NCBI GenBank assembly: GCA_031425655.1
Contig: JANPJS010000292.1
Location: 1-61,636 of the forward strand
Length of the DNA stretch: 61,636 nt
Direction: 5' to 3'
Origin: Abditibacteriaceae bacterium
Lineage (GTDB): Bacteria; Armatimonadota; Abditibacteriia; Abditibacteriales; Abditibacteriaceae
Shown here: positions 24,291 through 38,151 of the stretch, piece after piece
Position numbering within the stretch: the stretch's first letter is position 1
Layout of the letters: every line of letters begins with the position of its first letter
Notes under the pieces: generated by a model
The model's database searches: none
Told to the model about the DNA's origin: nothing
The model's input: the letters and a program-made list of their open reading frames with translations, nothing else
Program-made: the position numbers and the translations under genes

Positions 24291-25415
24291 ATGATTTACC
24301 TTGACCATAACGCCACCACGCCGATTTTGCCGGAAGTGCGCGAAGCGATGCTGCCGTATTTCACTGATGAATGGGGCAATGCGTCCAGCAGCTATCGTTT
24401 CGGCTCGAAACTCAAAGGCGTGATTGAAGCGGCGCGCGGCGAAGTGGCGTCGTTGATTGGTGCCGGTGCGCGTGAAATCATCTTCACCGGCTGCGCGACC
24501 GAAAGCAATAATGCGGCGATTCATGCCGCGCTCAAAGCCAATCCCGCTAAACGTCACATTATCACTTCGCAAGTCGAGCATTCCGCTGTGCTGCAAACCT
24601 GTCAGGCGTGGGAAAAAGATGGTTATCGCGTCACCTATCTCGGCGTTGACCGCAACGGCTTGTTGGACTTGGGCGAGTTGGAAAGCGCGCTTTCGGACGA
24701 AACCGCCGTTGTCTCGCTGATGTGGGCCAACAACGAAACCGGCGTGCTGTTTCCGGTGCAGCAAATCGGCGAACTCTGCCGCGAACGCGGCGTGCTTTTT
24801 CACTGCGATGCCGTGCAAGCCATCGGCAAATTGCCCGTTGATTTATCGAAAGTGCCGATAGATTATCTGGCCTTAGCCGGACACAAAATCAACGCGCCCA
24901 AAGGCATCGGCGCGCTTTACGTCCATCGCAAAGCGCCGTTTACGCCCCTTTTGCATGGCGGGCATCAGGAAAAAGGCCGGCGCGGCGGAACCGAAAACGT
25001 CGCGCTCATCGCCGGATTGGGTAAAGCCGCCGAGTTAGCTAAAAAACGCCTGCCCGATTACGACAAATCTGTGAGCCCACTGCGCGACGCTCTGGAAAAA
25101 GGCATCCTCGAAGCGATTCCCTGCGCCGAACTCAACGGCCACAAAACGCAGCGATTGCCCAACACAACTAACATCACATTTCGCGGCATCGAATCCGAGA
25201 GCCTGCTTTTGCTGCTGGACGGCGAAGACATCTGTGCCTCATCCGGCTCCGCGTGCCTCGCCGATTCCGACGAGCCTTCGCACGTCGTCAAATCCATGAA
25301 ACCCAACACCGACGCCCGCCAAACCGTGCGTTTTTCGCTGGGCATGGGGAATACAGCGGATGAAATTGGGCGCGTGGTGGAAACCGTGAAGCAGGCGGTT
25401 GAGGCGTTGGCATAG
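24291..25415 (+). CDS. dndA: Cysteine desulfurase (group I, IscS/NifS type), probable DndA sulfur donor
   Basis: MIYLDHNATT, ATESNN, VEHSAV, MWANNETG, HCDAVQ, GHKINAPKG, SSGSAC; stop lies 7 bp from the end of the dnd operon. The dndA label rests on context. Confidence 0.85.
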   Translation: MIYLDHNATTPILPEVREAMLPYFTDEWGNASSSYRFGSKLKGVIEAARGEVASLIGAGAREIIFTGCATESNNAAIHAALKANPAKRHIITSQVEHSAVLQTCQAWEKDGYRVTYLGVDRNGLLDLGELESALSDETAVVSLMWANNETGVLFPVQQIGELCRERGVLFHCDAVQAIGKLPVDLSKVPIDYLALAGHKINAPKGIGALYVHRKAPFTPLLHGGHQEKGRRGGTENVALIAGLGKAAELAKKRLPDYDKSVSPLRDALEKGILEAIPCAELNGHKTQRLPNTTNITFRGIESESLLLLLDGEDICASSGSACLADSDEPSHVVKSMKPNTDARQTVRFSLGMGNTADEIGRVVETVKQAVEALA

Positions 25416-25422
25416 CGGAAGC

Positions 25423-26706
25423 TTATTTCAATTTGCACACACGTTTGTAATCGACTTGCTCATCCTCGTCCAGATCACTGAATTTTCTGATGCCAAGGCA
25501 GAGTTCCAAACTCTTGCGAATTCTTTGTTTCCCTCTGCCTGACGCTTCAAAGAAGTGATCAGAAAAGTCGATTTCCGCACACGGCTTCATCCGTTCCTCA
25601 AAAAATGCTTGGCTTATATCCCTTCTCTCAGGTGCTACGGCTTCTACACAAAGCGTTTTGAGAACGTCAAATAAAGCCTGAATGCCAACGGTCTTTTGGA
25701 TGGAGGTTGATGCGGCATCCCGCCACAACAATTTACTGACTGCGTTGAAGTAATTATTAACAAGAGTGTAAATGACTAAATCCCGATTAGCTAAAAAATA
25801 TCCACGCAGAGGCGACCTATCCGCAGGCTTAATTTCACTTAACAATCCACGTTCGCGCCCACCCCCCAACTCTTTTTTCAGCATTAAATCTCGATCACGT
25901 TTCGGATTACTGGCAAAAAGAGTTAGCAATCCCTCGACAATAGTAGCTGTCGAAACAATCCATTTTTCCCCTTTCTCTTTAGCTGCGGCTTTGAGTGACT
26001 CTTCATCCTGAGCTGCAACTGAAATATGTCCTTTAAATACTGATTTCGCATCCGTGTTTAATTTACGGCAAATAAAAACGGCTGCTTTATCAGGAGACCA
26101 AGATTCAGGCGGTTCTTTCTCAATGCTGTATGCAAAAAGTTCATAAGTTAAACTTTTATCGACTTGCTTTTGGTTGAAGTTGATGGTTGCAAATAATCCC
26201 GCTTGATAAGCGTTGGGTAAATCTAAAAAAACTGCACAAACTAAGGGCATATCTTGTCGGCCTGGAATAGATGTTTTCTCAAATCCATAAAGCCTATGTT
26301 GTCCGTCAACAACAGCAGCAATTTTGTCTAATGAAGGGATTAGTAATTGTCCAGTCATACGATCTGAAAACAATTCTACAGACCACCTTTTCATTCCTTC
26401 AAACTCGTCTGTTTCTTCAATCAGTTTGCCGGTTTGGTTATCGTAATTCGCTGCCAAAATAATGGAATTAGGCAGGCAAGATTCAACTCCATCTAAATAG
26501 CGGCCTATAGCTTTTAGACGATCTTCATCTAATCGACGTTGATTCCCTTCGGGTTTGTAACCTACTGTGTCCGAGGCCTCCATTTCCACCCAATCAACGT
26601 AAGCCACTTTTAGCAAAACGTTGGCAGGAATAGAACAAACAAAAAATTCACCAAGTGGTTGCACCACTCGCAGCACAGGAAAACGCAAAGGCAGTTCGAA
26701 AGTCAT
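25423..26706 (-). CDS. DGQHR domain protein (DndB-like superfamily; phosphorothioation-associated DGQHR type)
   Basis: QPLGEF, GNQR, PNSIILAAN, VVDGQHRLYGF, FATINFNQKQVDKSLTYELF; visibly AT-rich. Confidence 0.9.
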   Translation of the reverse strand: MTFELPLRFPVLRVVQPLGEFFVCSIPANVLLKVAYVDWVEMEASDTVGYKPEGNQRRLDEDRLKAIGRYLDGVESCLPNSIILAANYDNQTGKLIEETDEFEGMKRWSVELFSDRMTGQLLIPSLDKIAAVVDGQHRLYGFEKTSIPGRQDMPLVCAVFLDLPNAYQAGLFATINFNQKQVDKSLTYELFAYSIEKEPPESWSPDKAAVFICRKLNTDAKSVFKGHISVAAQDEESLKAAAKEKGEKWIVSTATIVEGLLTLFASNPKRDRDLMLKKELGGGRERGLLSEIKPADRSPLRGYFLANRDLVIYTLVNNYFNAVSKLLWRDAASTSIQKTVGIQALFDVLKTLCVEAVAPERRDISQAFFEERMKPCAEIDFSDHFFEASGRGKQRIRKSLELCLGIRKFSDLDEDEQVDYKRVCKLK

Positions 26707-26708
26707 TT

Positions 26709-27215
26709 TCAGCTCCCACGAAAATCAGACAGATCACCAGGCAACTCTTCTTTTGGATTGCCACCCATTGCTGCCTCCTGAGAGATAGGTTTATCCGCTA
26801 AGTCCGGGTTCTCTCCATTTGCTATCCACCACAAGAACAGCGATAGGATTGTTCCGAATATAGCTGGATACATGGACCGCTCAGGACTTGGCCCAAAGGC
26901 TACCAAGACTGCACAACCAAATGCAATGACACCGCAGATTGAAAGCACTACCTTCGTTGGCTTTTCCAGATCAAGTTTGAGTTGAATGTCAACGAGAGCA
27001 GTGGCAGCGACGGCAACAAAATAAGAGTAACTTGCCGTCACGATTGTCTTGAGAAGTTCGGTTTTCGGCAGCGAGCCAAACCACCACCACCGCAGCACTG
27101 GTTCCCATAGGCCAAAACTACCTAACCCTACAACACAGCCAAAAAAATAAAACCAAAAGGTCTCTTGCTTCATGGGCTGGCACAACCGCCGTTTAAGGTC
27201 AGTAGAAAAAATCAT
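26709..27215 (-). CDS. Hypothetical 4-TM membrane protein in the dnd operon
   Basis: Four hydrophobic segments; GAGGAAGGA before ATG 27215; stop 2 nt before the DGQHR start; AT-rich. Confidence 0.75.
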   Translation of the reverse strand: MIFSTDLKRRLCQPMKQETFWFYFFGCVVGLGSFGLWEPVLRWWWFGSLPKTELLKTIVTASYSYFVAVAATALVDIQLKLDLEKPTKVVLSICGVIAFGCAVLVAFGPSPERSMYPAIFGTILSLFLWWIANGENPDLADKPISQEAAMGGNPKEELPGDLSDFRGS

Positions 27216-27237
27216 GGTAAAAAATTCCTTCCTCTTC

Positions 27238-28713
27238 TCACTTTCCTCCATCCCGCCAGAATTGCCGGGCGGGGCCTGATTCCAATTTGCCACCTAAACG
27301 CAGGGCGGCTTCGGCTTTTTCAAGCTGTTTGGTTATCGTGGTGCCTAAAATCTTCTTTTGCTGAGAGGCATTCAGCGTGTGCGGCGAAAAGTGGATGCCT
27401 GCCGAGGCGAGGTCGGCGAAGTCGGCGCCCGCGCTGAGAAACTTGTCGGCGTCTTGGGAAGCGAGCCACAACGGGAAGCCCCACGAGCGGCCTTCGCGCG
27501 CCAAGCGTTCGAGCAGTTTGGCTTTGCCGTCTTTGGGCAGGATGTTGTGCGCTTCGTCCACGAATAGCACCATTTGCAGGGGCTGGATGCCGTCGCGGAT
27601 GGAAAGGTTCTGGTTGAGGCGTTCGATGAAAAAGTTGAGGATAAAAGCCACGCTTAAGGCCCGTGTATCGTTGTCCAATGGCTTGAAATCAATGACAATC
27701 GAGCGCGCCATCCATTCCTCGAAGGGCCGGGCGGCGTTCGCTGCGGCGAAGATGTTGAGGTCGAGCAGCTTGCTCAGGATGGAAATGGCGACGCCTTTTT
27801 CGCCGTCCTTTTTGAGTTCGGCGACCAGCGAGGCGAAATCGGGCTTTTTCAATTGCTGGTAAGCGGTGCGAATGGCTTCTTCCTGATTGGCGCCCATTTG
27901 CGGCCCGAAAGAGCGCACTAATGACGCGATGCGCGAAGCGATATTGGCGGTTTCGGGTGCGGTCTTGCCGACGAAAAGTGGGTTGATGGGCAGACTGTTG
28001 TCAATCAGGCGCAAATACTGCGCGCCGGTCTGCTCGAAAAAGCGGGCGCGGTTAGCCGCTTTTTGGCGGTCGTCAACAGCGATTTCGAGTTCGCCTTTCA
28101 AGTCGAAGAACAGGAATCTCATGCCCTGACGCGATAGCTGCGCCAGTAAATCGAGGGCAAGCTGGCTTTTGCCCGAACCCGGCTCGCCGGAAATCACCAG
28201 CAGGCCGTTGTTGGTTTCCGGGCCGTTCATGCTCCATTCTTCGGCATCGTTTAGCAGCTTTAGCTTGACTTCTTTTTCGACAATCGCTTGCGTCGAAGCG
28301 CTGCCTCGTGCAGTGTGCGAATCGGTGATAGGCGCGCCCGCACCAGCGATTTTTAACAGTTCCGAGACAAAACGAACTTGGTCGTTGCCGCTGTTTTCCC
28401 ACAGTTGTTTCAAGCGAAAGCAGCCGTATTCAAAGTGCAAGCGGAATTGTTGGCGATAAGCGGTTTCATCGAGCGTGCGCCCGGCGCGATGATTCAAGGC
28501 CGAGCGCACGACATCGCGCAGGTCATCGCCGATGACGGTTTCGTCGTCTAAATCCTTGCCGCCCGAATCGGCGATTTTGAACGCGGGCGCGACGCCTTCG
28601 CCGAGCGCCAAAAACAGCGCCGAACGCCCTAAAACCGCCTTATTGCGCGCTCCAACACGGGCGTGGATGTTTTCGATGAACTCTTCGGCGGCTAAGCTGG
28701 GTTTAAATCTCAT
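27238..28713 (-). CDS. dndE: DndE-like N-terminal domain fused to a HerA/DUF87-type P-loop ATPase (DndEi-like)
   Basis: N-terminal about 105 aa with DndE-like pattern (NKAVLGRSALFLAL, GKDLDDETVIG, FRLHFEYG); Walker A GEPGSGKS; FFDLKGE; Walker B LFVDEAH; REGRSWG; LASQ. Confidence 0.78.
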   Translation of the reverse strand: MRFKPSLAAEEFIENIHARVGARNKAVLGRSALFLALGEGVAPAFKIADSGGKDLDDETVIGDDLRDVVRSALNHRAGRTLDETAYRQQFRLHFEYGCFRLKQLWENSGNDQVRFVSELLKIAGAGAPITDSHTARGSASTQAIVEKEVKLKLLNDAEEWSMNGPETNNGLLVISGEPGSGKSQLALDLLAQLSRQGMRFLFFDLKGELEIAVDDRQKAANRARFFEQTGAQYLRLIDNSLPINPLFVGKTAPETANIASRIASLVRSFGPQMGANQEEAIRTAYQQLKKPDFASLVAELKKDGEKGVAISILSKLLDLNIFAAANAARPFEEWMARSIVIDFKPLDNDTRALSVAFILNFFIERLNQNLSIRDGIQPLQMVLFVDEAHNILPKDGKAKLLERLAREGRSWGFPLWLASQDADKFLSAGADFADLASAGIHFSPHTLNASQQKKILGTTITKQLEKAEAALRLGGKLESGPARQFWRDGGK

Positions 28714-29101
28714 TTTCCGAATCTCTGCTGTTTTGCGGTTCGTAGCTTTTGAATTCCCATTCGACTTCGCGTTTTAACCAACGATAAACTGCCGCCATCG
28801 CCGCCTCGCGGGTTGGGAAAAAAGCGCTGCCGTTGACGAACGTATAAGTGGCATCGTTAGCTTGTTCGTGTATCAAAGTAATTGGGCTTTGCTCGTCCTG
28901 ATTTTCGACACTGTTATGCCAATCGCCCCATGCGAACCATGAACCATCAATCGCCGGAGCGACGTAAAAGCGATTTTCTCCGGCGTGATTAACGTCCATT
29001 AAACGAGCGACACAGGTTTTTTGGTCGTGGGCAAAGGTGCGGTTTTCTTGGTCAATACCAAGTTCTTCGTGATGAAGCGCGTAATGCTGCCAACTCGTCA
29101 C
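28703..29101 (-). CDS. Hypothetical 132-aa protein between dndD and dndE
   Basis: ATGA overlap with the dndD stop and 11-nt overlap with the dndE start; GGGAGG RBS; no motif recognised. Confidence 0.65.
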   Translation of the reverse strand: MTSWQHYALHHEELGIDQENRTFAHDQKTCVARLMDVNHAGENRFYVAPAIDGSWFAWGDWHNSVENQDEQSPITLIHEQANDATYTFVNGSAFFPTREAAMAAVYRWLKREVEWEFKSYEPQNSRDSENEI

Positions 29102-30048
29102 AGCGTCCTCCCGAAATAATCGCCGCTCACGCGCACCTGATAATCAACGCTGTCTTCTTCGCCATGCGGATGCAGCGTGTAAACGCGCGCCAGTCGCCCG
29201 CTGATATTTTTGAAAAGCGGCCCATTGGGATCAATTTCCGAATTGGTGGTGAGAATCAGCGATTGGTGGCCGCTGAGGTAAAGCTGGTCGAGCACATTAG
29301 CGCGCACTTCCAAATCGAGGCGTCCCAGCGGCGTATCAACCACCAGCGGCGGCTTGAGGCGCGCCATGCGGCGCAGCGCTTCGTAAAACGCCAGCATTCG
29401 CACTTGTCGCTGCCCTGCCGAAGTGTTGGTGTCTTCCCACGCCACACGCTCGCCATCTTGACGCACCAAGAAACAACGCCAGTGTGAATCGAATTCGAGA
29501 CTTTTGAATTCGCGTTCGCGCTCGACGATTTGCGTCCATAATTCGCCGACGCCTTGTGAAATCTGCTCGCGCAGTTGCACCGCAGCGACTTCGCGGATGC
29601 GCTTGGCGGCTTCGCGGTAACTTGAGACAAGGGACGCTAAATTTTGCCCTTTTTGCATCTTCGCGCGCGTGTCGTCCAAGAGGGTTTCCTGCCCGCGTAG
29701 TTCAGTCAGGCTTTTATCGAGATTGGTGATTTCGACGAACAAATCTTCGTGTTGCTTTTGCAATCCGGCGTGTTTGCGCTTCAAGTCGCCGCGACGCTCA
29801 TGCAACTCCTGCCCGCGTTCGAGCGAAAAGCGGTTGCTTTGCATTTGCTTGAGGCGTGTGTCGAGTTCGCTCAAGTCAATACCGGGCGTTTCCAATTTGC
29901 GGCAGCGCTCATCCAAGTCGGAAATCGCTGTCGGATTCCCTGTCACCAAAGCGCGAACCTGCGCGCTGATGTCGTTGCGAGAAGTGAGAAACGGACTGCC
30001 TTCGCTCATGCCTTCGGGCGGCGGATGAAACAAGCGATGCAAGGCTTT
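29098..30048 (-). pseudogene. dndD: C-terminal half of DndD (SMC-like ATPase); Walker A half missing
   Basis: Coiled coil then SAGQRQ (signature), PLVVDTPLGRLD (Walker B/D-loop) and QSLILTTNSEID. In-frame TAA at 30049-30051, no Walker A and no convincing start; about half the usual DndD length. Confidence 0.8.
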
Positions 30049-30087
30049 TTAGAAGATGGAGGAGGAAAATACGTCGAAGTTATCTGT

Positions 30088-30993
30088 TTATATGCTGCCG
30101 AGTTTGTTTTTGCGGTGCCAATCGAGGTGTTTTTTATCCGGCCAATAATTGCGGTCTTTAGGAAGATGGATTTGCGTGCCTGCTAATTTCAAGAGGGAAA
30201 GTGCTTCGTTGCCGGATTCGTGAAAGCGCCAATCGGCGACGAGGACACGGTAATCATTATCGAGCGACCACAAACCCTGATCGAACATCCAATGGGCATT
30301 TTTGGATAGAGCGATGCCATTTTGCGGATGATTATTGCGGCTATCGGAAAATTGGTGAATATGCGCGGCGTCAACGATGCTGCCCGCACCTACAGTAATT
30401 AGGCGGTAACGTGTTAAAGCACAGGTGTAATTGTAGGCCGGAACGACGGTCAAACGAAAACGGGCCTCGCGTCCTCGTTCTTGTGCTGCTTCGTAAAGTT
30501 TGGCATCGGCTTGCACAATATCATCGGGCGGAACAGGCAAACCAACAAGATCATAAAGTGCGGCGCGTTCAGTGGAATCTTCAAAATACTTCGCAATAAG
30601 CACACGCCGCAAATGTTCACGAAAATCAGAGTCTTGCAAACACGCAAAAAAATCCTTGTCTAATTGCACAGCAACAGCGCGGCGTTTTTCCAGAGTTGGC
30701 TGTCCGGTTTCATCCAATGGTGTCCAAACACCTGAGCTTTTCAAGTGATAAAACGGCAAGTGAATTTCTGGTTTTTGCGGACGACGCGCTGCAACAATTG
30801 TCCAAAAGGCAAGAAAGCGAAAAGCGAGTTCGCCGGTAAGTTCTAAGAGGGGCTGCGATAGTTTGTTTTGCTCGGCAAGTTCGGCGATAACTAATAAAAG
30901 AAGCGGCTGATGCGGTGCTGGCCCGGCGCTACGATCAATACGAAGGTTAGCAACACTTTTTAACCAATATTCAGTTTGAAGCGATTCGTTCAT
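30088..30993 (-). CDS. HNH endonuclease with N-terminal SBD-like (sulfur-binding) domain; putative phosphorothioate-dependent restriction enzyme
   Basis: N-terminal LRIDR..APHQPLLLL ... LPFYHLKSSGVW; C-terminal REARFR..V..AYNYTCALT, DAAHI, NHPQNGIALSKNAHWMFDQG, LDWHR. Confidence 0.82.
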   Translation of the reverse strand: MNESLQTEYWLKSVANLRIDRSAGPAPHQPLLLLVIAELAEQNKLSQPLLELTGELAFRFLAFWTIVAARRPQKPEIHLPFYHLKSSGVWTPLDETGQPTLEKRRAVAVQLDKDFFACLQDSDFREHLRRVLIAKYFEDSTERAALYDLVGLPVPPDDIVQADAKLYEAAQERGREARFRLTVVPAYNYTCALTRYRLITVGAGSIVDAAHIHQFSDSRNNHPQNGIALSKNAHWMFDQGLWSLDNDYRVLVADWRFHESGNEALSLLKLAGTQIHLPKDRNYWPDKKHLDWHRKNKLGSI

Positions 30994-31001
30994 TTCATCC
31001 G

Positions 31002-32297
31002 TTAGTTTTGGCTGGTTTTCAATTTTTGTTCTGCTAATTCATCATTCAAAATCCGCACTAACTCGTCGGGCAAACCGAAGCGGCGATGGCTTTCGGAGTA
31101 TTCTTCGACTTTGGAAACCAGGCGGCGCAGCGTTTCGTGCGACAAGTGTTTTTCTTCGCAAACCTGTTCTTCCATGAGGCGCAGTTTGTCCATTTCTTTG
31201 AGGTCGTTCATCATGATGCCTTTGTGTTGATGCACGATGCGCGCGACGCCGTTGCCGTCGTCGGGTTTGCGCGCCGAGTTCCAAAATCGTTGAATCAACA
31301 ACAATTCCTCCTCGTTAATGAGCTTCAAAGCCGTTTCTTCCTGCAAATCCAGCAAGCGCGTCAATAATTCGCGGCGCGCATCCATCGTCAAAGGGCCGGG
31401 GCCGTCGTTGCCATTCATGCGCCGCATATCGCGGTAGCCGTTTTCCGGTTCGCGCACTGTTAATAAAATATCGCGGAACGAAATCAGCTTTTCCATGCGC
31501 TCGTCGCCCGCATTCATCAAGCCCTCGCTGGCCTTGTCTTTATCCACGACGGTGCAAGTCCAGCAGCCAAAGCGCGAATTGCCACAACTGGGCGTGCTTT
31601 TATCAATCTGCACCGGGCATTCGCCGCCCGACGCATCGGCATACAAGCGATACAAATCGCGGTTGCTGCCTCCCCACGGCGGCTTTTTTTGCAGCAGATA
31701 TGCCCACACTTCTTCGGTCGTCAGATGCTCAATCGGATTATTAATCCACACGCGCGGCAAATCGTTGTGCTTGCGTAATCCGCCGCGAGTTTCGCGCTTG
31801 GCCATCGTTTGGGCGCGGCTTGAACTTTCGGCGCGGCGTGCTCCCAGTTGAAAAATCGCTTCGCCCCAGTGTCCGACGCGGTTTTCGACAAAGCGCGACA
31901 TCGGATCAATTTTCAAGCGCGAAGTGCACCAGCGAAACACGCGATTGGGCGGCGGATAACCGCGCCCGATGACATTCACCCAGAACGATTGCTCGGCAGG
32001 CGGACGCAGCAAATGCACTTCGATGTTGAGTTTGTTGGCATCCGAGCATTTTTTCATGCGCGCAAGCGTGGTTTCGACCATTTCGACGATGGCCGGAATT
32101 TCCACGCGCGTGTCGCTGCACAAAATGGCAATCGGTTTGGTGCGCTTTTCGGGCGCGAGGCCCAAAACCACATCGAAAATCAGCGACGCAACCATCGAGC
32201 TGTCTTTGCCGCCGCTAAAACCGACGAGCCATGGTCGTTCGTCTTCAAGATAAAGGGTTTCGAGATTATCGCGGATTTCGCTAAAAAGAGTGGACAT
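31002..32297 (-). CDS. dndC: DNA phosphorothioation sulfurtransferase DndC (PAPS reductase family)
   Basis: PWLVGFSGGKDS, DTRVEIP, FWVNVIGRGYPPP, RWCTSRLKIDP, GECP, CGNSRFGCWTCTVV. Confidence 0.95.
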   Translation of the reverse strand: MSTLFSEIRDNLETLYLEDERPWLVGFSGGKDSSMVASLIFDVVLGLAPEKRTKPIAILCSDTRVEIPAIVEMVETTLARMKKCSDANKLNIEVHLLRPPAEQSFWVNVIGRGYPPPNRVFRWCTSRLKIDPMSRFVENRVGHWGEAIFQLGARRAESSSRAQTMAKRETRGGLRKHNDLPRVWINNPIEHLTTEEVWAYLLQKKPPWGGSNRDLYRLYADASGGECPVQIDKSTPSCGNSRFGCWTCTVVDKDKASEGLMNAGDERMEKLISFRDILLTVREPENGYRDMRRMNGNDGPGPLTMDARRELLTRLLDLQEETALKLINEEELLLIQRFWNSARKPDDGNGVARIVHQHKGIMMNDLKEMDKLRLMEEQVCEEKHLSHETLRRLVSKVEEYSESHRRFGLPDELVRILNDELAEQKLKTSQN

Positions 32298-32464
32298 AAG
32301 AAGTGGTTTTGCCCAAGTATAAGCCATGTGCTGAGGTAAAGAAAAAGCCGCTCAGAGTTTGTTTACTGATTACCTCGAACCTTTAATCGCGGCTAAGGCA
32401 TTCGCGCCGTTTACTTTTCCGCCCCCGCGCCGCGCTTTGTATCCTTATGTATGAGGAAAATTCC

Positions 32465-34537
32465 ATGACTTTATCGAAATTCATTTCTGGCGCCGCAGTT
32501 GGCGCGGCGTTGATGACAACGCAAATTATCGGGCCGTCACACGCCGAGGGCTTGCACTATTACGACCCGGCGGCAGTCAAGCCATTGGCGCAAACGCTGG
32601 AAACCGACATTTGCATTTATGGCGGCACTTCGGCGGGCGTGGTGGCGGCGCTGCAAGCCAGTCGCATGGGAAAAAAGGCGATCATCCTCGAACAAAACGC
32701 GCATTTAGGCGGCATGAGTTCGGGCGGGTTGGGCGAAACCGACATCGGCAACAAAGCCGCAATCGGCGGCGTATCGCACGAGTTTTACAAGCGCGTCGGC
32801 CAGAAAAACGGCATGGCCGAAAACTGGAAATTCGAGCCGCACATCGCCGAACAGGTTTTTATAGAAATGGCGCAGGAAGCCAAAGCGCCGGTTTTCTATC
32901 GCCAGTTTTTGAAATCCGTCGAGAAAAACGGCGCGCGATTGCTTTCCATCACGATGGAAAGCGGCCTCACTGTCCGCGCCAAATTCTTCATTGACGCCAC
33001 TTACGAAGGCGATTTGATGGCGAAAAGCGGCGTGAAATATCATGTGGGCCGCGAAGCCAATGCGGTTTACAACGAAACCGTCAATGGCGTTCAAGTGCGC
33101 GGCGCCCATCAATTCGACCGCGCGGTTAGCCCTTATATTGTCGAAGGCGACGCGAATAGCGGCCTTTTGCCCGGCATCAATGGCGGCGACCCCGGCGAGC
33201 AGGGATCGGGTGATAAGCGAGTGCAGGCTTATAATTTCCGGCTGTGCCTGACCAAAGTGCCCGAAAACCGCATCGCTTACGAAAAGCCCGCAGGCTACAA
33301 TCCGCTGGAATATGTCTTACTGGCGCGACTTCTTAAAGCCGGCTGGCCCGAAAGCGAGGTTTTTCGGAAATTCGACCCGGTTTTCAATAAAAAAGTAGAT
33401 AAAAACAATCACGGCGCGGTTTCGACCGACTTTATAGGCCGCAACTACGATTGGCCCGAAGCCGATTACGCGACCCGCGAGAAGATGTTTCAAGCGCACG
33501 TCACCTATCAAAAAGGCTTGATGTGGTTCTTGGGCAACGACCCCAGCGTGCCCGAAAGCATTCGCACCAAATGGAGTGAATGGGGCTTGCCCAAAGATGA
33601 ATTTCAGGATACGGGCGGCTGGCCGTATCAACTTTACGTGCGCGAAGCGCGGCGCATGATTTCGGATTACGTGATGACCGAGCATAATTGTCGGGGCAAA
33701 ATCGTGGTCGAAGACCCGATTGGCATGGCGGCTTACACGATGGATTCGCACAACTGCCAGCGCTTTGTCAAAAACGGGCGCGTGTGGAACGAAGGCGATG
33801 TGCAAGTCGGCGGCTTTCCGCCGTATCCGATTTCTTATCGCTCGATTGTGCCGAAAAAGGCCGAATGCGAAAACTTGGCTGTTCCGGTTTGCCTGTCCAC
33901 TTCTCACATCGCTTACGGCTCGATTCGCATGGAGCCGGTTTTTATGCTGCTCGCTCAATCGGCGGCGACGGCGGCCTCGATGGCGATAGATGAAAAAATC
34001 GCCTTGCAAGACGTGAGTTACGCCAAACTGCGCGAGCGCCTTTTGGCCGACGCGCAAATTTTGGAATGGAAAGGCAAACCGGCGACCGCGGAAAACGACC
34101 AGAACCTCCCATTGCGCGCTTTGACCGGACTTTTGGTGGACGACGCGCAAGCCAAAAAAACCGGCGAGTGGATTGATTCGCCGCGCAACGAATTTCGTGT
34201 CGGGACGGGCTACATTCACGACGACAACGCGCGCAAAGGCGAGCTTTCCATCGCTTTTACACCGCAGATTTCCGAAGCCGGCGAATACGAGTTGTTTTTC
34301 GTTTTCACGCCCAACGGCAACCGCGCCTCGAACGTGCCGGTCACCGTAGCAATTGACGGCAAAGACGTGAAAACCATTGCGGTTAATCAAAAGCCGCCCG
34401 GCGAAGGCGTGGTTTCGCTGGGCAAATTTCAGCTTGCCAAAGGCGCCGGAGCGACGGTTACGATTTCCAATAAAGGCACCGACGGCTTCGTCGTCGTGGA
34501 CGGAGTGCAGGTTGTGGCGTCGAAGCCGGCGAATTGA
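32465..34537 (+). CDS. Secreted FAD-dependent oxidoreductase (xanthan-lyase-annotated type) with C-terminal beta-sandwich domain
   Basis: Signal peptide; IYGGTSAG, GGMSSGGLG, FIDATYEGDL, YVREARRM, MDSH, YGSIRMEP; GAGG RBS. Confidence 0.9.
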   Translation: MTLSKFISGAAVGAALMTTQIIGPSHAEGLHYYDPAAVKPLAQTLETDICIYGGTSAGVVAALQASRMGKKAIILEQNAHLGGMSSGGLGETDIGNKAAIGGVSHEFYKRVGQKNGMAENWKFEPHIAEQVFIEMAQEAKAPVFYRQFLKSVEKNGARLLSITMESGLTVRAKFFIDATYEGDLMAKSGVKYHVGREANAVYNETVNGVQVRGAHQFDRAVSPYIVEGDANSGLLPGINGGDPGEQGSGDKRVQAYNFRLCLTKVPENRIAYEKPAGYNPLEYVLLARLLKAGWPESEVFRKFDPVFNKKVDKNNHGAVSTDFIGRNYDWPEADYATREKMFQAHVTYQKGLMWFLGNDPSVPESIRTKWSEWGLPKDEFQDTGGWPYQLYVREARRMISDYVMTEHNCRGKIVVEDPIGMAAYTMDSHNCQRFVKNGRVWNEGDVQVGGFPPYPISYRSIVPKKAECENLAVPVCLSTSHIAYGSIRMEPVFMLLAQSAATAASMAIDEKIALQDVSYAKLRERLLADAQILEWKGKPATAENDQNLPLRALTGLLVDDAQAKKTGEWIDSPRNEFRVGTGYIHDDNARKGELSIAFTPQISEAGEYELFFVFTPNGNRASNVPVTVAIDGKDVKTIAVNQKPPGEGVVSLGKFQLAKGAGATVTISNKGTDGFVVVDGVQVVASKPAN

Positions 34538-34803: not shown

Positions 34804-35031
34804 ATGGCGAAAGAAAGCACTCAAAAAGCCACGCAACCGGCGGGCAATCCGATTTTTGAAGTCGGCTCGGCGAAGCCAGTGAAAAGCCCGATTCGCTGTG
34901 GCATTGTCGGTTTGGGGCGCATCGGCTGGTGCCATCACGCGCAGACGATTTCGCAGCACGGCGGCTTTGAACTCGCCGCCGTGTGCGATGTGGAAGCGGA
35001 GCGCCTTGACGAAGCCAAAGCCTTAGCGAAT
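34804..35031 (+). pseudogene. Duplicated 5' fragment of the downstream Gfo/Idh/MocA gene
   Basis: 34825-35031 aligns without gaps to 37045-37251 (offset 2220) at roughly 90% identity; reads in frame into the next gene. Confidence 0.85.
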
Positions 35032-35040
35032 TGGGTCTTC

Positions 35041-36777
35041 ATGCGAAAACATTCAATCTTCCTGTCGCTGTCGGCCCTGCTGGTTTTCGGTTTCGCGCCG
35101 CCGCAATCGGCGGCGCAGCGCACATCGCTGGCCGCCGGCGCGAAAAGCCCCGCGAAAATCGGTGTGGACTTCGATTTACAAGGCTTTATTGACGGCGAAA
35201 TCAAAGCGGGGCGTAAACTCATCGTAGTGCCGCCGGGGCGTTATCGCGTGAGGCCGCGTAACCGCGAGCATCTGGGTTTGCGCGACTTAAAGGATGTGCA
35301 AATCATCGCCGATGGCGTGGAGTTGATCTGCACCGAAACCACGCGCGCCCTGACTATCGCGGGCTGCAAGAATCTCACACTGCGCGGCTTGACCATTGAT
35401 TACGATCCGTTGCCGTTTACGCAGGGCCGCATCACGGCGCTATCGCCTGACAAAACGGTGCATGACATTGAGATTTTCGACGGCTATCCATCGGCGAAAA
35501 CGGCGATCAATTTCAAATACGAAATTTTTCAAAGTGACACGCGCACTCTGCGCTGCGAGGCGCCCGGCCTGGAAAGTGTGGAAGCCCTTGACGCAAAGCA
35601 CTTGCGTCTCACCAAAAATCGCGGCAGCGCCGCGGACCCAGAGCAAATCGGGGACATCATCGCCATCGGCAGCGAAACCGCGCCCGGCGGCAGCATTCCG
35701 CACGCGGTCGTCACTGAAAAATCGGCGGGCGTGCGCCTCGAAAACATTGATTTGTGGGCGTCGAATTGCTTCGGTTTTCTCGAATACGAATGCGACGCCA
35801 CCACTTATCAACGTTGCCGCATTGACCGCCGCCCGGCCAAAGGTGATCTCGTCGTGCGCGGCGATGCGCGTATTCGCTCATTGGATGCCGATGCGTTTCA
35901 CAGCAAACACGCCATCAAAGGCCCGCAGCTTATCAATTGCGTGGCGAAGTTTATGGGCGACGACGCGGTGAACATTTGCGGCAACTATCACATGGTCACG
36001 GCAGGCAACGGTGCCGAACTGCGTGTGCTGGCCAAAGACAAGATTTTCGCGGTCGGCGAACCGGTCGAATTGTGGAGCTACGCAGGTGTGCGCCTGCCCG
36101 ACGCGAAGGTTCTTAAAATCGAGCCGGACGGCAAAATCAACGAGGATGAACGCGCGTTTTTGCTGAAGCAGCGCATGAACGAAAGCATCCGCACGAAATG
36201 GAATGCCGACGCTTATAAAGTGACCTTAGAGCGCGCGGTGCAACTCCCTCAAGGCTCGCTGATCGCTTCAACAAAGCGCATGGGCAATGGCTTTTTAGTG
36301 CAGGGCTGCGATTTTGGCTTTAATCGCTCGCGCGGCATTCTCATCAAGGCCAGCGACGGTAAAGTCATCGGCAACAAAATCAGCGGTAGCCGCATGATGG
36401 CGATTTTAGTGGCGCCCGAATACTGGTGGCTCGAATCGGGCAGTTCCAACAATGTGGAAATTAGCGGTAACACCATCACCGATTGTCTGGACGTGGGCAT
36501 CGAAGTGGTGGCGCACGCCGGAACGGGCAAGCTCGCGCCTTCCGGCGCGCATCGTAAAATCGTTATCAGCGGCAACAAAATCAGCAATAGCCCGCTGCCG
36601 AACATCGTCGTCACTTCGACGAGCGAATTAAGAATCGAAGGCAACTCAATTACGCCATCGGCAGGCAAAATCTCCGACTGGTCACTGCATATGCTCGATT
36701 TGAAAACGGCCAAGCTTGAAGCGGTAATGACGAGCAACTGCGAGGCGCCGCTGGTGCAGGGCAACAAAATTAAATAG
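35041..36777 (+). CDS. Secreted right-handed beta-helix protein, GH110 (alpha-galactosidase)-like
   Basis: Signal peptide MRKHSIFLSLSALLVFG; TIDYDPLPFTQG, DADAFH, MGDDAVNI, RSRGILIK; PbH1-like IxGNxI repeats. Confidence 0.75.
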   Translation: MRKHSIFLSLSALLVFGFAPPQSAAQRTSLAAGAKSPAKIGVDFDLQGFIDGEIKAGRKLIVVPPGRYRVRPRNREHLGLRDLKDVQIIADGVELICTETTRALTIAGCKNLTLRGLTIDYDPLPFTQGRITALSPDKTVHDIEIFDGYPSAKTAINFKYEIFQSDTRTLRCEAPGLESVEALDAKHLRLTKNRGSAADPEQIGDIIAIGSETAPGGSIPHAVVTEKSAGVRLENIDLWASNCFGFLEYECDATTYQRCRIDRRPAKGDLVVRGDARIRSLDADAFHSKHAIKGPQLINCVAKFMGDDAVNICGNYHMVTAGNGAELRVLAKDKIFAVGEPVELWSYAGVRLPDAKVLKIEPDGKINEDERAFLLKQRMNESIRTKWNADAYKVTLERAVQLPQGSLIASTKRMGNGFLVQGCDFGFNRSRGILIKASDGKVIGNKISGSRMMAILVAPEYWWLESGSSNNVEISGNTITDCLDVGIEVVAHAGTGKLAPSGAHRKIVISGNKISNSPLPNIVVTSTSELRIEGNSITPSAGKISDWSLHMLDLKTAKLEAVMTSNCEAPLVQGNKIK

Positions 36778-37002: not shown

Positions 37003-38151
37003 ATGGCAAAAGAAAACCTGAAAAAGAACGAAAAAGCCGCCCCGAAAGCCACGCAACCGGCGGGCAATCCGATTTTGGAAGTCGGCTCGGCGAAGCCAGT
37101 GAAGAATCCGGTTCGCTGCGGCATTGTCGGATTGGGACGCATCGGCTGGTGCCATCACGCGCAGACGATTTCGCAGCACGGCGGCTTTGAACTCACCGCC
37201 GTGTGCGATGTGGAAGCCGAGCGCCGCGACGAAGCGAAGGCGGCGGCGAACTGCGCGACGTATGCGCGGTTTGAAGAATTGCTGGCCGATAAAAACATCG
37301 AATTAGTCATCGTCGCCACGCAATCGGTTGACCACGAAGCGATGACGATTGCCGCGCTCAAAGCCGGTAAGCACGTTTTGTGCGAAAAGCCGGCGGCGCA
37401 AGGCGCGGCGGGCGTCAAACGTATGATCGCGGCGGCCAAAAAGTCGGGCACGCTGCTGACGATGCACCACAATTATCGGCTGAACCCGGAATTTCTTTAC
37501 GTGCGCGAAGTGATGCAAAGTGGCATTTTAGGCAAAATCGTGCGCATGAAGCGCAGCCATCAGGGTTTCGCGCGGCGCAACGATTGGCAGGTGCTGCGCA
37601 AATACGGTGGCGGCATGACCGGCAACTGGGGCATTCATCTTGTGGACGCCTGCCTGCAACTGCTCGATTCACCGGTGCAAGATGTTTGGGGCGATGTGAA
37701 GCAGGTTTTTAATCCCGGCGATGCCGAAGACGACATCAAAGCCATCATTCGCGGGACGAGCGGCATGACTTTGGACATTGACATGAACAGCACCAACGCC
37801 GCGCCCGAACCGAGTTGGGTCGTGGCCGGCGATTGCGGAACGCTTTGGCTCGACGGCAAAACCGCGCATATTAAGTTCTTCGAGCGCAAAAAGCTGCCCA
37901 AACTCGCCGTCAACGATTTGCACTTGGCTTTAGGCCGCGCTTACGGCGTGCAGCCCAACCCCGATTTAATTCCGTGGCAGGAGCGTGAAGAAGCCATCGT
38001 GCCCAAAAAGAAGTATGCGAGCTTCTACGACAACCTTTTCGATGCGATTCGCAAGCAAAAACCGTTGCTCATCGAGCCGGAAAGCGCCTTACGCACTTAC
38101 GAAGTGCTGGACAAAATTCGCAAAGGCAGCCGCTTTGCGCCGGGGAAATAG
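37003..38151 (+). CDS. Gfo/Idh/MocA family oxidoreductase
   Basis: GIVGLGRIG, ALKAGKHVLCEKP, GGGMTGNWGIHLVD; GGAG RBS. Confidence 0.93.
   Translation: MAKENLKKNEKAAPKATQPAGNPILEVGSAKPVKNPVRCGIVGLGRIGWCHHAQTISQHGGFELTAVCDVEAERRDEAKAAANCATYARFEELLADKNIELVIVATQSVDHEAMTIAALKAGKHVLCEKPAAQGAAGVKRMIAAAKKSGTLLTMHHNYRLNPEFLYVREVMQSGILGKIVRMKRSHQGFARRNDWQVLRKYGGGMTGNWGIHLVDACLQLLDSPVQDVWGDVKQVFNPGDAEDDIKAIIRGTSGMTLDIDMNSTNAAPEPSWVVAGDCGTLWLDGKTAHIKFFERKKLPKLAVNDLHLALGRAYGVQPNPDLIPWQEREEAIVPKKKYASFYDNLFDAIRKQKPLLIEPESALRTYEVLDKIRKGSRFAPGK

Follow-up and report, generated by a model that had tools for sequence, protein, structure and literature searches.

The window analysed here, a 61,636-nucleotide stretch of DNA from an Abditibacteriaceae bacterium (contig JANPJS010000292.1, assembly GCA_031425655.1), contains a dnd gene cluster in which a nuclease gene stands in place of dndD codons 1 to about 371, including those for the Walker A motif. 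Published work is cited by PMC number. The cluster comprises the following features:

31002..32327, minus strand: intact dndC, 441 aa (TIGR03183, 395.9 bits; cut-off 290.4)
30088..30993, minus strand: SBD-HNH nuclease, 301 aa (matches to NF045808, PF13391 and 8H0L; AlphaFold/Foldseek)
30043..30087, minus strand: 45-bp spacer, readable in register as degraded dndD and containing an in-frame TAA (30051-30049)
29098..30042, minus strand: 3' remnant of dndD, codons about 372-687 of a 687-aa gene (aligned to the intact DndD of close kin)
28703..29101, minus strand: 132-aa open reading frame matching no family; the slot that it occupies, between dndD and dndE, is variable
27238..28713, minus strand: intact 491-aa fusion protein of DndE and an ATPase of HerA/FtsK-like type, akin to the DndH C-terminus (PF08870, E = 5.5e-11; PADLOC DndH, E = 3.7e-22)
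26709..27293, minus strand: 194-aa hydrophobic protein without family match, which recurs before the DGQHR gene
25423..26706, minus strand: DGQHR (DndB-like) protein (TIGR04172, 417 bits, cut-off 450; TIGR03187 above cut-off)
24294..25415, plus strand: dndA-type cysteine desulfurase, convergent with the operon (PADLOC DndA, E = 5e-146; TIGR03402, 526 bits)

A nuclease gene replaces the 5' half of dndD

The start codon (ATG) of the nuclease gene lies 8 bp beyond the stop codon of dndC, as stated in a preliminary description of this DNA, and all motifs listed there (APHQPLLLL, LPFYHL, GVW, CALT, DAAHI, QNG and LSKNAH) were recovered when the translation was re-read. Its broader claim, that the nuclease resides in a phosphorothioate (PT)-writing operon, needs to be amended: dnd genes do surround it, but the writer is not intact, with DndD reduced to codons about 372-687. 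The remnant, which is 79% identical to the intact DndD of genome G125 and 60% identical to that of genome G237, retains the ABC signature (SAGQ) and the Walker B region (VDTP) and lacks the Walker A motif (GKNGAGKT, located at position 38 in the intact gene of its kin). ABC ATPases of the DndD type require both halves, and no N-terminal half of dndD was found elsewhere in the genome of the window (97% complete). Because the ATP-binding 5' half of dndD has been replaced, the locus likely no longer writes PT marks. A dnd system without DndD is also called nonfunctional in PMC10853773.

The in-register reading of the 45-bp spacer as dndD was made by inspecting the alignment by eye. No terminator-like hairpin was detected in this spacer (z = 0.56), and neither promoters nor terminators above chance level emerged when the window region was scanned. 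A Logan contig spanning positions 27000-32841 agrees with the assembly without a single difference, although it may derive from the source sample, and a 151-bp contig from a second study crosses the junction between the HNH gene and dndD with 2 differences. The uniform contig cover and the second-study contig rule out an assembly artefact at the junction. Elsewhere in the window, the start of a 657-aa open reading frame (34804-35100) nearly repeats the start of an oxidoreductase gene (37003-37300), pointing to a partial duplication or else to local misassembly.

In the fusion protein, the DndE part scores above the cut-off of PF08870 and below that of TIGR03184. The same fusion to a HerA/FtsK-like ATPase is present, alongside full-length DndD, in loci L097 and L100 and in most intact loci of this subtype, and the intact DndD proteins of the kin reach 183-184 bits, less than the TIGR03185 cut-off of 245.85. 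The fusion marks a divergent, putatively PT-writing dnd subtype whose DndD falls under that cut-off. In the accessible parts of the literature searched, we met no description of such a fusion in operons with full-length DndD. Small open reading frames without NCBIfam match, differing between loci, occupy the slot between dndD and dndE (28703-29101 in the window, L101:8869-9474 and L100:9582-10031).

The nuclease belongs to a zinc-free sister clade of a PT-reading family

The designation of the 301-aa protein as an SBD-HNH nuclease, with a sulfur-binding domain (SBD) ahead of an HNH domain, is borne out by several comparisons. A Pfam search returns HNH_2 alone (PF13391; E = 2e-10, 40.8 bits, cut-off 21) and detects no SRA domain in the protein. 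Residues 10-296 align with NF045808, the family of "phosphorothioated DNA-binding restriction endonuclease" (E = 2e-33), at a score of 115.7 bits, which lies below the curated cut-off of 180, as do those of three members of the clade (114-130 bits). Using phmmer, the protein also matches SBDHga (PDB 8H0L; E = 2e-5). An AlphaFold model based on 120 homologues (mean pLDDT 71.5, pTM 0.52, with values partly below 50 in the HNH core) retrieved in Foldseek only SBD structures as its top 12 matches (8H0L, 7CCD, 7CC9, 7CCJ, 5ZMO, 5ZMM and 5ZMN), with a best E of 5.8e-5 and a TM-score by target of 0.64-0.73 for the Hga and Spr domains. The N-terminus is thus predicted to take the SBD fold, in agreement with the preliminary description. 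A 77%-identical homologue at NCBI is labelled Abditibacteriaceae.

The predicted sulfur pocket consists of H28, Q29, L79, P80 and H83, arranged around the central proline. In the sequence alignment, these residues correspond to H25, K26, L75, P76 and H79, which line the sulfur cavity of SBDHga (PMC10602919); their correspondence to the cavity of SBDSpr, formed by Y31, Q32, Y78, P79 and A82 (PMC7470945), is by motif position only. H28 and P80 are invariant across the 120 homologues, and H83 as well as the predicted catalytic residues H211, N225 and H234 are each kept in at least 90% of them. Q29 is found in 4 of 58 dndC-linked nuclease rows, all four with a broken dndD, whereas 52 of 58 have a lysine. 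Because glutamine occurs in the SBDSpr pocket and leucine in that of SBDHga, the HQP and LPF motifs give no sign of lost sulfur reading. The earlier suggestion that these substitutions changed or abolished sulfur recognition therefore finds no support: every one of the pocket residues is matched in a PT binder of known crystal structure, and Q29 appears only beside broken dndD. The reduced set of zinc-binding cysteines, also pointed out before, is real (C191xxT194 and S230xxA233) but not special to the window copy, with the second and fourth ligands missing clade-wide while H211, N225 and H234 are retained. The pocket counterparts and the clade-wide zinc loss rule out Q29, LPF or the degenerate zinc site as the cause of the coexistence of nuclease and dnd genes. 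We place the protein in a zinc-free sister clade of NF045808 that likely works like the family, without filing it as a member. It is predicted to bind and cleave PT-modified DNA.

Replacement of dndD recurs and excludes the full-length gene

Within the phylum, 301 genomes were sampled and dndC matches were present in 13; five of the 13, not counting the window's own genome, belong to its family. Two of these five, G237 and G125, carry a full dndD, and the dndD of a third, G152, is nearly complete but frameshifted late; no nuclease was found genome-wide in any of the three (85-92% complete). The -1 frameshift at the dndD 3' end of G152 (L099) leaves a 636-aa reading frame and may be an error or a separate inactivation. 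G116 and G266, like the window, combine the nuclease with the 3' half of dndD. In G116, dndD codons 1-18 survive ahead of the nuclease, and the remnant shares 89% identity with the intact gene of G237. Since the remnant of G116 falls in the G237 sublineage and that of the window groups with G125, the nuclease entered dndD in at least two backgrounds. The 18-codon stub (L098:7453-7506; at the same place in L119 and L120) shows only synonymous differences, also relative to intact G237; its conservation might reflect a renewed recombination arm or selection.

The window and G266 are sister loci. Between them, dN/dS is 0.11-0.16 for dndC, the dndD remnant (0.12), dndE and dndA, and 0.07 for the nuclease. 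At synonymous sites, the nuclease is more diverged (pS 0.58) than the backbone (0.41-0.48), and a mosaic signal at the dndC 3' end is suggestive only. The nuclease gene of G266 contains about 23 small indels, probably read errors, and its row was dropped from one comparison.

Metagenome loci were then picked by dndC alone, taking the best 80 of 279 confirmed matches. Within this set, 45 loci carry the nuclease (two of them as a fragment only), 30 have dndD straight after dndC without a nuclease (full in 19 loci, split in 2 and contig-cut or short in 9) and 5 are uninformative. Among these best 80 of 279 matches, full-length dndD was seen in none of the 45 nuclease loci, of which 33 offer enough downstream DNA to judge. 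After dereplication of the best 80, 32 nuclease loci, 19 with full dndD, 1 with split and 8 with contig-cut dndD, and 3 uninformative loci remain. On a dndC tree of 77 dereplicated rows (21 duplicate or uninformative rows and any shorter than 420 nt were left out), the nuclease/dndD label changes 22 times, with 19 changes forced by starred branches; this is no fewer than in shuffles (mean 24.4). The 22 label changes rule out a single origin of the dndC-nuclease arrangement.

The junctions differ as well. Endpoints in nuclease loci fall at D263, D365-378, D482, E8-17, E53, E176, E197 and E316, and 5' remnants of dndD end at D407 and D433. Seven right breakpoints lie at dndD codons 365-378, in a cluster overlapping locally conserved DNA (62nd-88th percentile of the gene). 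Most nuclease loci have no dndD at all, and many also lack dndE. A second subtype of dndC, with 43-47% identity to that of the window, is represented by L008-L011, L049, L050 and L063, where the nuclease directly follows dndC; dndD of the second-subtype loci is 5'-truncated or not seen, with the same truncation in L010 and L011. Sampling 401 genomes from the phylum that includes G306 added just 3 new loci of the window's subtype. One of these, L197, has lost dndD without a nuclease: two other genes stand in its place (L197:3562-5432; no nuclease match), presumably resembling a pair of a DUF5131 protein and its three-Cys-motif partner.

The nuclease moves horizontally with short flanking arms

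Distances in the nuclease gene are decoupled from those in dndC (Mantel r -0.01, 35 rows), whereas dndC and dndD distances are correlated (r 0.85, 24 rows). Within the same 13 nuclease loci, r is 0.85 for dndC against dndE and -0.12 for dndC against the HNH gene. L141 and L143 share a 1,050-bp tract that is 98.5% identical, between flanks of 87.4% and 77.1% identity, and which begins about 100 bp within dndC and ends just beyond the nuclease. From the position of this tract edge, we infer that the dndC 3' end serves as the left homology arm. L126, a nuclease locus whose dndD remnant contains a stop, is 94.6% and 94.7% identical in its two flanks to L116, which has a full dndD; their near kin L115 carries a different nuclease. 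Close relatives of the nuclease were found neither on plasmids (best match 33%) nor in phages (best 32%), and one viral contig bears a member of the clade; a plasmid or phage was thus not retained as the vehicle.

As the swap recurs in about half of the sampled related operons, the nuclease gene is likely a mobile cassette. Our preferred explanation, with a probability of about 0.72, is that this predicted PT-restricting cassette overwrites dndD by homologous recombination, leaving a likely dead writer and a nuclease that would restrict incoming marked DNA. One of three options offered in the preliminary description was that the arrival of the nuclease inactivated the writer. The evidence goes beyond this proposal, because the nuclease physically substitutes the 5' half of dndD, both here and recurrently elsewhere.

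Fate of the remaining dnd genes

Of 25 nuclease loci, 14 have a broken dndE or none, as opposed to 0 of 17 dndD loci (Fisher p = 1.2e-4, with kin that are not independent). Stops interrupt the dndD remnants of L126, L168 and L177 and lie just ahead of that of the window, and dndC is split in 7 of 46 against 1 of 31 loci, a difference that is not significant (p = 0.13). We saw no excess of amino-acid change in dndC on nuclease branches (287/683 versus 357/822, p = 0.74) and no relaxed selection on what remains of dndD in the window, G266 and G116; a pooled amino-acid excess in dndD (p = 0.008) is gone without L039. The low dN/dS of dndC was rejected as proof of a new function, since the same pattern fits recent conversion.

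Between the nuclease and the dndD remnant, G116, L119 and L120 possess a terminator-like hairpin, with a 13-16-bp stem, a T run, compensatory changes and z values of -2.8 to -5.9, at these positions in the three related loci:

L098:8475-8510, L119:3739-3772 and L120:5244-5276: terminator-like hairpin

By its sequence, this element argues against co-expression of the remnant with the nuclease in these loci. A general terminator after the nuclease was discarded, with candidates in 6 of 41 loci compared with 6 of 25 controls and strong ones confined to the same three loci.

The persistence of these genes raises the alternative that the beheaded DndD is functional, its C-terminal half forming a new selected complex with DndC, the DndE-HerA fusion and the nuclease, perhaps a translocase-guided restriction machine in which the HerA-type ATPase substitutes for the lost Walker A motif. 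Were the window and G266 to share one event, their remnants would be under selection, and such a complex would account for the C-half frame being open in eight loci (the window, G266, G116, L119, L120, L028, L141 and L143), for the dN/dS of 0.12 and the missing relaxation on the Abditibacterial branches, for the clustering of seven right breakpoints at codons 365-378 and for the purely synonymous variation of the 18-codon stub. We nevertheless regard it as unlikely. In most nuclease loci dndD is wholly gone, and in many dndE too; the endpoints range from D263 to E316; stops affect the remnants listed above and precede that of the window; the hairpin separates nuclease and remnant in three loci; the codon-370 cluster lies in conserved DNA, as expected of a crossover site; and the synonymous divergence of the nuclease exceeds that of the backbone between the window and G266.

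Coexistence of the nuclease with canonical dnd genes

Three Planctomycete loci (L033, L037 and L042) harbour a nuclease of this clade whose pocket and catalytic residues are preserved, next to a complete set of canonical dndBCDE. In L037 (3729-10789), these genes are accompanied by a tandem NF045808 member above the cut-off (377.7 bits), and L046 and L066 each contain two SBD-HNH genes in tandem. By analogy to ScoMcrA, which restricts GpsGCC dnd clusters and spares GAAC/GTTC ones (PMC7470945), a motif mismatch would explain the coexistence in the Planctomycete loci. It is here that another earlier option, in which PT binding regulates cleavage rather than triggering it, has its only relevance; at the window, it is superfluous, because no complete writer is left there.

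These loci, together with the selectivity of ScoMcrA, speak for a nuclease that is compatible with the writer, owing to another target motif or to regulation, with the slot between dndC and dndD acting as a recombination hotspot for defence cargo and the loss of dndD being a by-product or favoured by the cost of PT. Different cargo indeed occupies the place of dndD in L197, and PMC10853773 proposes that dnd-linked SBD nucleases cooperate with the writer. Even so, this alternative appears quite improbable: a harmless insert could often land between genes, whereas none of the 45 nuclease loci among the best 80 of 279 dndC matches retains a full dndD, despite many separate junctions, and the identical truncation is seen in the second dndC subtype (L010, L011). 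Hardly any weight falls on the last possibility, that HQP and LPF abolished sulfur recognition and left a non-specific or dead nuclease, since the sub-threshold NF045808 score, the missing zinc ligands and the low-confidence HNH core of the model are set against pocket residues that all recur in some crystallised PT binder, the conservation of H28, P80, H83, H211, N225 and H234 among the 120 homologues and a dN/dS of 0.07.

A proposed switch between writer and anti-writer alleles

In the preferred reading of a cassette that overwrites dndD, homologous recombination would use as its left arm the 3' end of dndC, which is conserved, or the start of dndD, and as its right arm a conserved stretch in dndD, dndE or dndA. 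The survivors would comprise only events that abolish dndD function, because a host with both the nuclease and a working writer would die. The dnd genes left behind would look fresh because the conversions are recent, and decay afterwards, while the two alleles, writer and anti-writer, would be maintained as a polymorphism in the manner of DpnII and DpnI. A bolder and rather doubtful extension is a gene drive directed by the epigenetic PT mark: once inside a PT-marked cell, the nuclease would cleave the chromosome, promote recombination at the dnd locus and eliminate every cell whose dndD escaped replacement. If so, the cassette would home into the very gene that makes its own target and keep the two alleles near parity across several phyla.

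Replacement of dndD by the cassette would do away with an apparent paradox, that of a PT-writing operon encoding a PT-cutting enzyme, and put in its place a testable switch between writer and anti-writer at a single locus, a backbone-sulfur counterpart of DpnII/DpnI that spans several phyla. The cassette likely converts mark-writing bacteria into mark-attacking ones. Surveys that score dnd genes plus an SBD nuclease as a working restriction-modification pair may partly count dead writers. Similarly, the missing DndD in about 250 taxa, ascribed to poor assembly in PMC10853773, may in part reflect dead writers. The natural pairs L116/L126 and G237/G116 permit a direct comparison of PT as a self mark and as a liability, and the clade offers zinc-free SBD-HNH enzymes with a motif that may suit the uncharacterised dnd subtype with the DndE-HerA fusion.

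Comparison with known systems

In-place replacement of dndD was not found in the openly accessible literature searched; Table S4 of PMC7461809, which covers dnd-adjacent nucleases, may hold similar cases. Measured against a Dnd writer, the window has an intact DndC, DndE and cysteine desulfurase and lacks a full-length DndD with Walker A. Its nuclease shares with SprMcrA and EcoWI (NF045808) an SBD fold followed by HNH, a length of about 300 aa, the H[K/Q]P...xPFxxLxxxxxW motif and the catalytic H-N-H residues, but it is without the CxxC/CxxH zinc finger of EcoWI homologues and remains under the family cut-off. SBDHga (8H0L), a promiscuous sulfur-binding domain, is its best match in both sequence and structure, although the nuclease domain of Hga is of the PD-(D/E)XK type rather than HNH and identity in the structural alignment is 21-22%. 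According to PMC7461809, less than 3.6% of SBD-HNH enzymes adjoin dnd genes, with mutated clusters suggested as one reason; for the clade of the window, by contrast, a dnd-like match lies nearby in 34 of 80 GTDB loci, and the other 46 have no dnd gene nearby.

The dnd-linked wHTH+SAD+HNH nucleases of PMC10853773 are likewise SBD-type enzymes in a dnd neighbourhood. However, they possess a SAD/SRA domain, follow downstream of the genes for modification and have been proposed to partner the writer, whereas the two-domain enzyme of the window removes DndD. In a type I complex, mcrBC was inserted as a helper, not as a replacement (PMC2614495). A free-standing homing endonuclease, which drives its own copying by cleaving the empty allele, uses one fixed insertion site, while both left and right endpoints vary in the present clade; a co-conversion-like tract was seen in L141/L143. 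ScoMcrA provides the precedent for incompatibility, as its combination with dnd kills the host and selects for dnd deletion (PMC3009677), so that expression of the nuclease favours dnd loss. ScoMcrA has the SBD-SRA-HNH architecture and is encoded on a separate element, though, and the whole 93-kb island is lost; here there is no SRA domain, and dndD is overwritten in place.

The closest parallel is provided by DpnI and DpnII of Streptococcus pneumoniae, which are mutually exclusive at one locus and exchanged via flanking homology (PMC2993543; for the genetic logic, see also PMC12707154). Mutual exclusion is mirrored by the 45 nuclease and 30 dndD loci among the best 80 of 279 dndC matches, and exchange through flanking homology by the conversion-like tract and the decoupled distances. 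Given this exclusion, the nuclease would, as in the DpnI/DpnII pair, cut the mark that the other allele writes. Unlike in that pair, remnants of dndD persist because the homology arms are the writer genes themselves, and the system differs further in that its mark is backbone sulfur, its endpoints vary and it extends over several phyla rather than one species.
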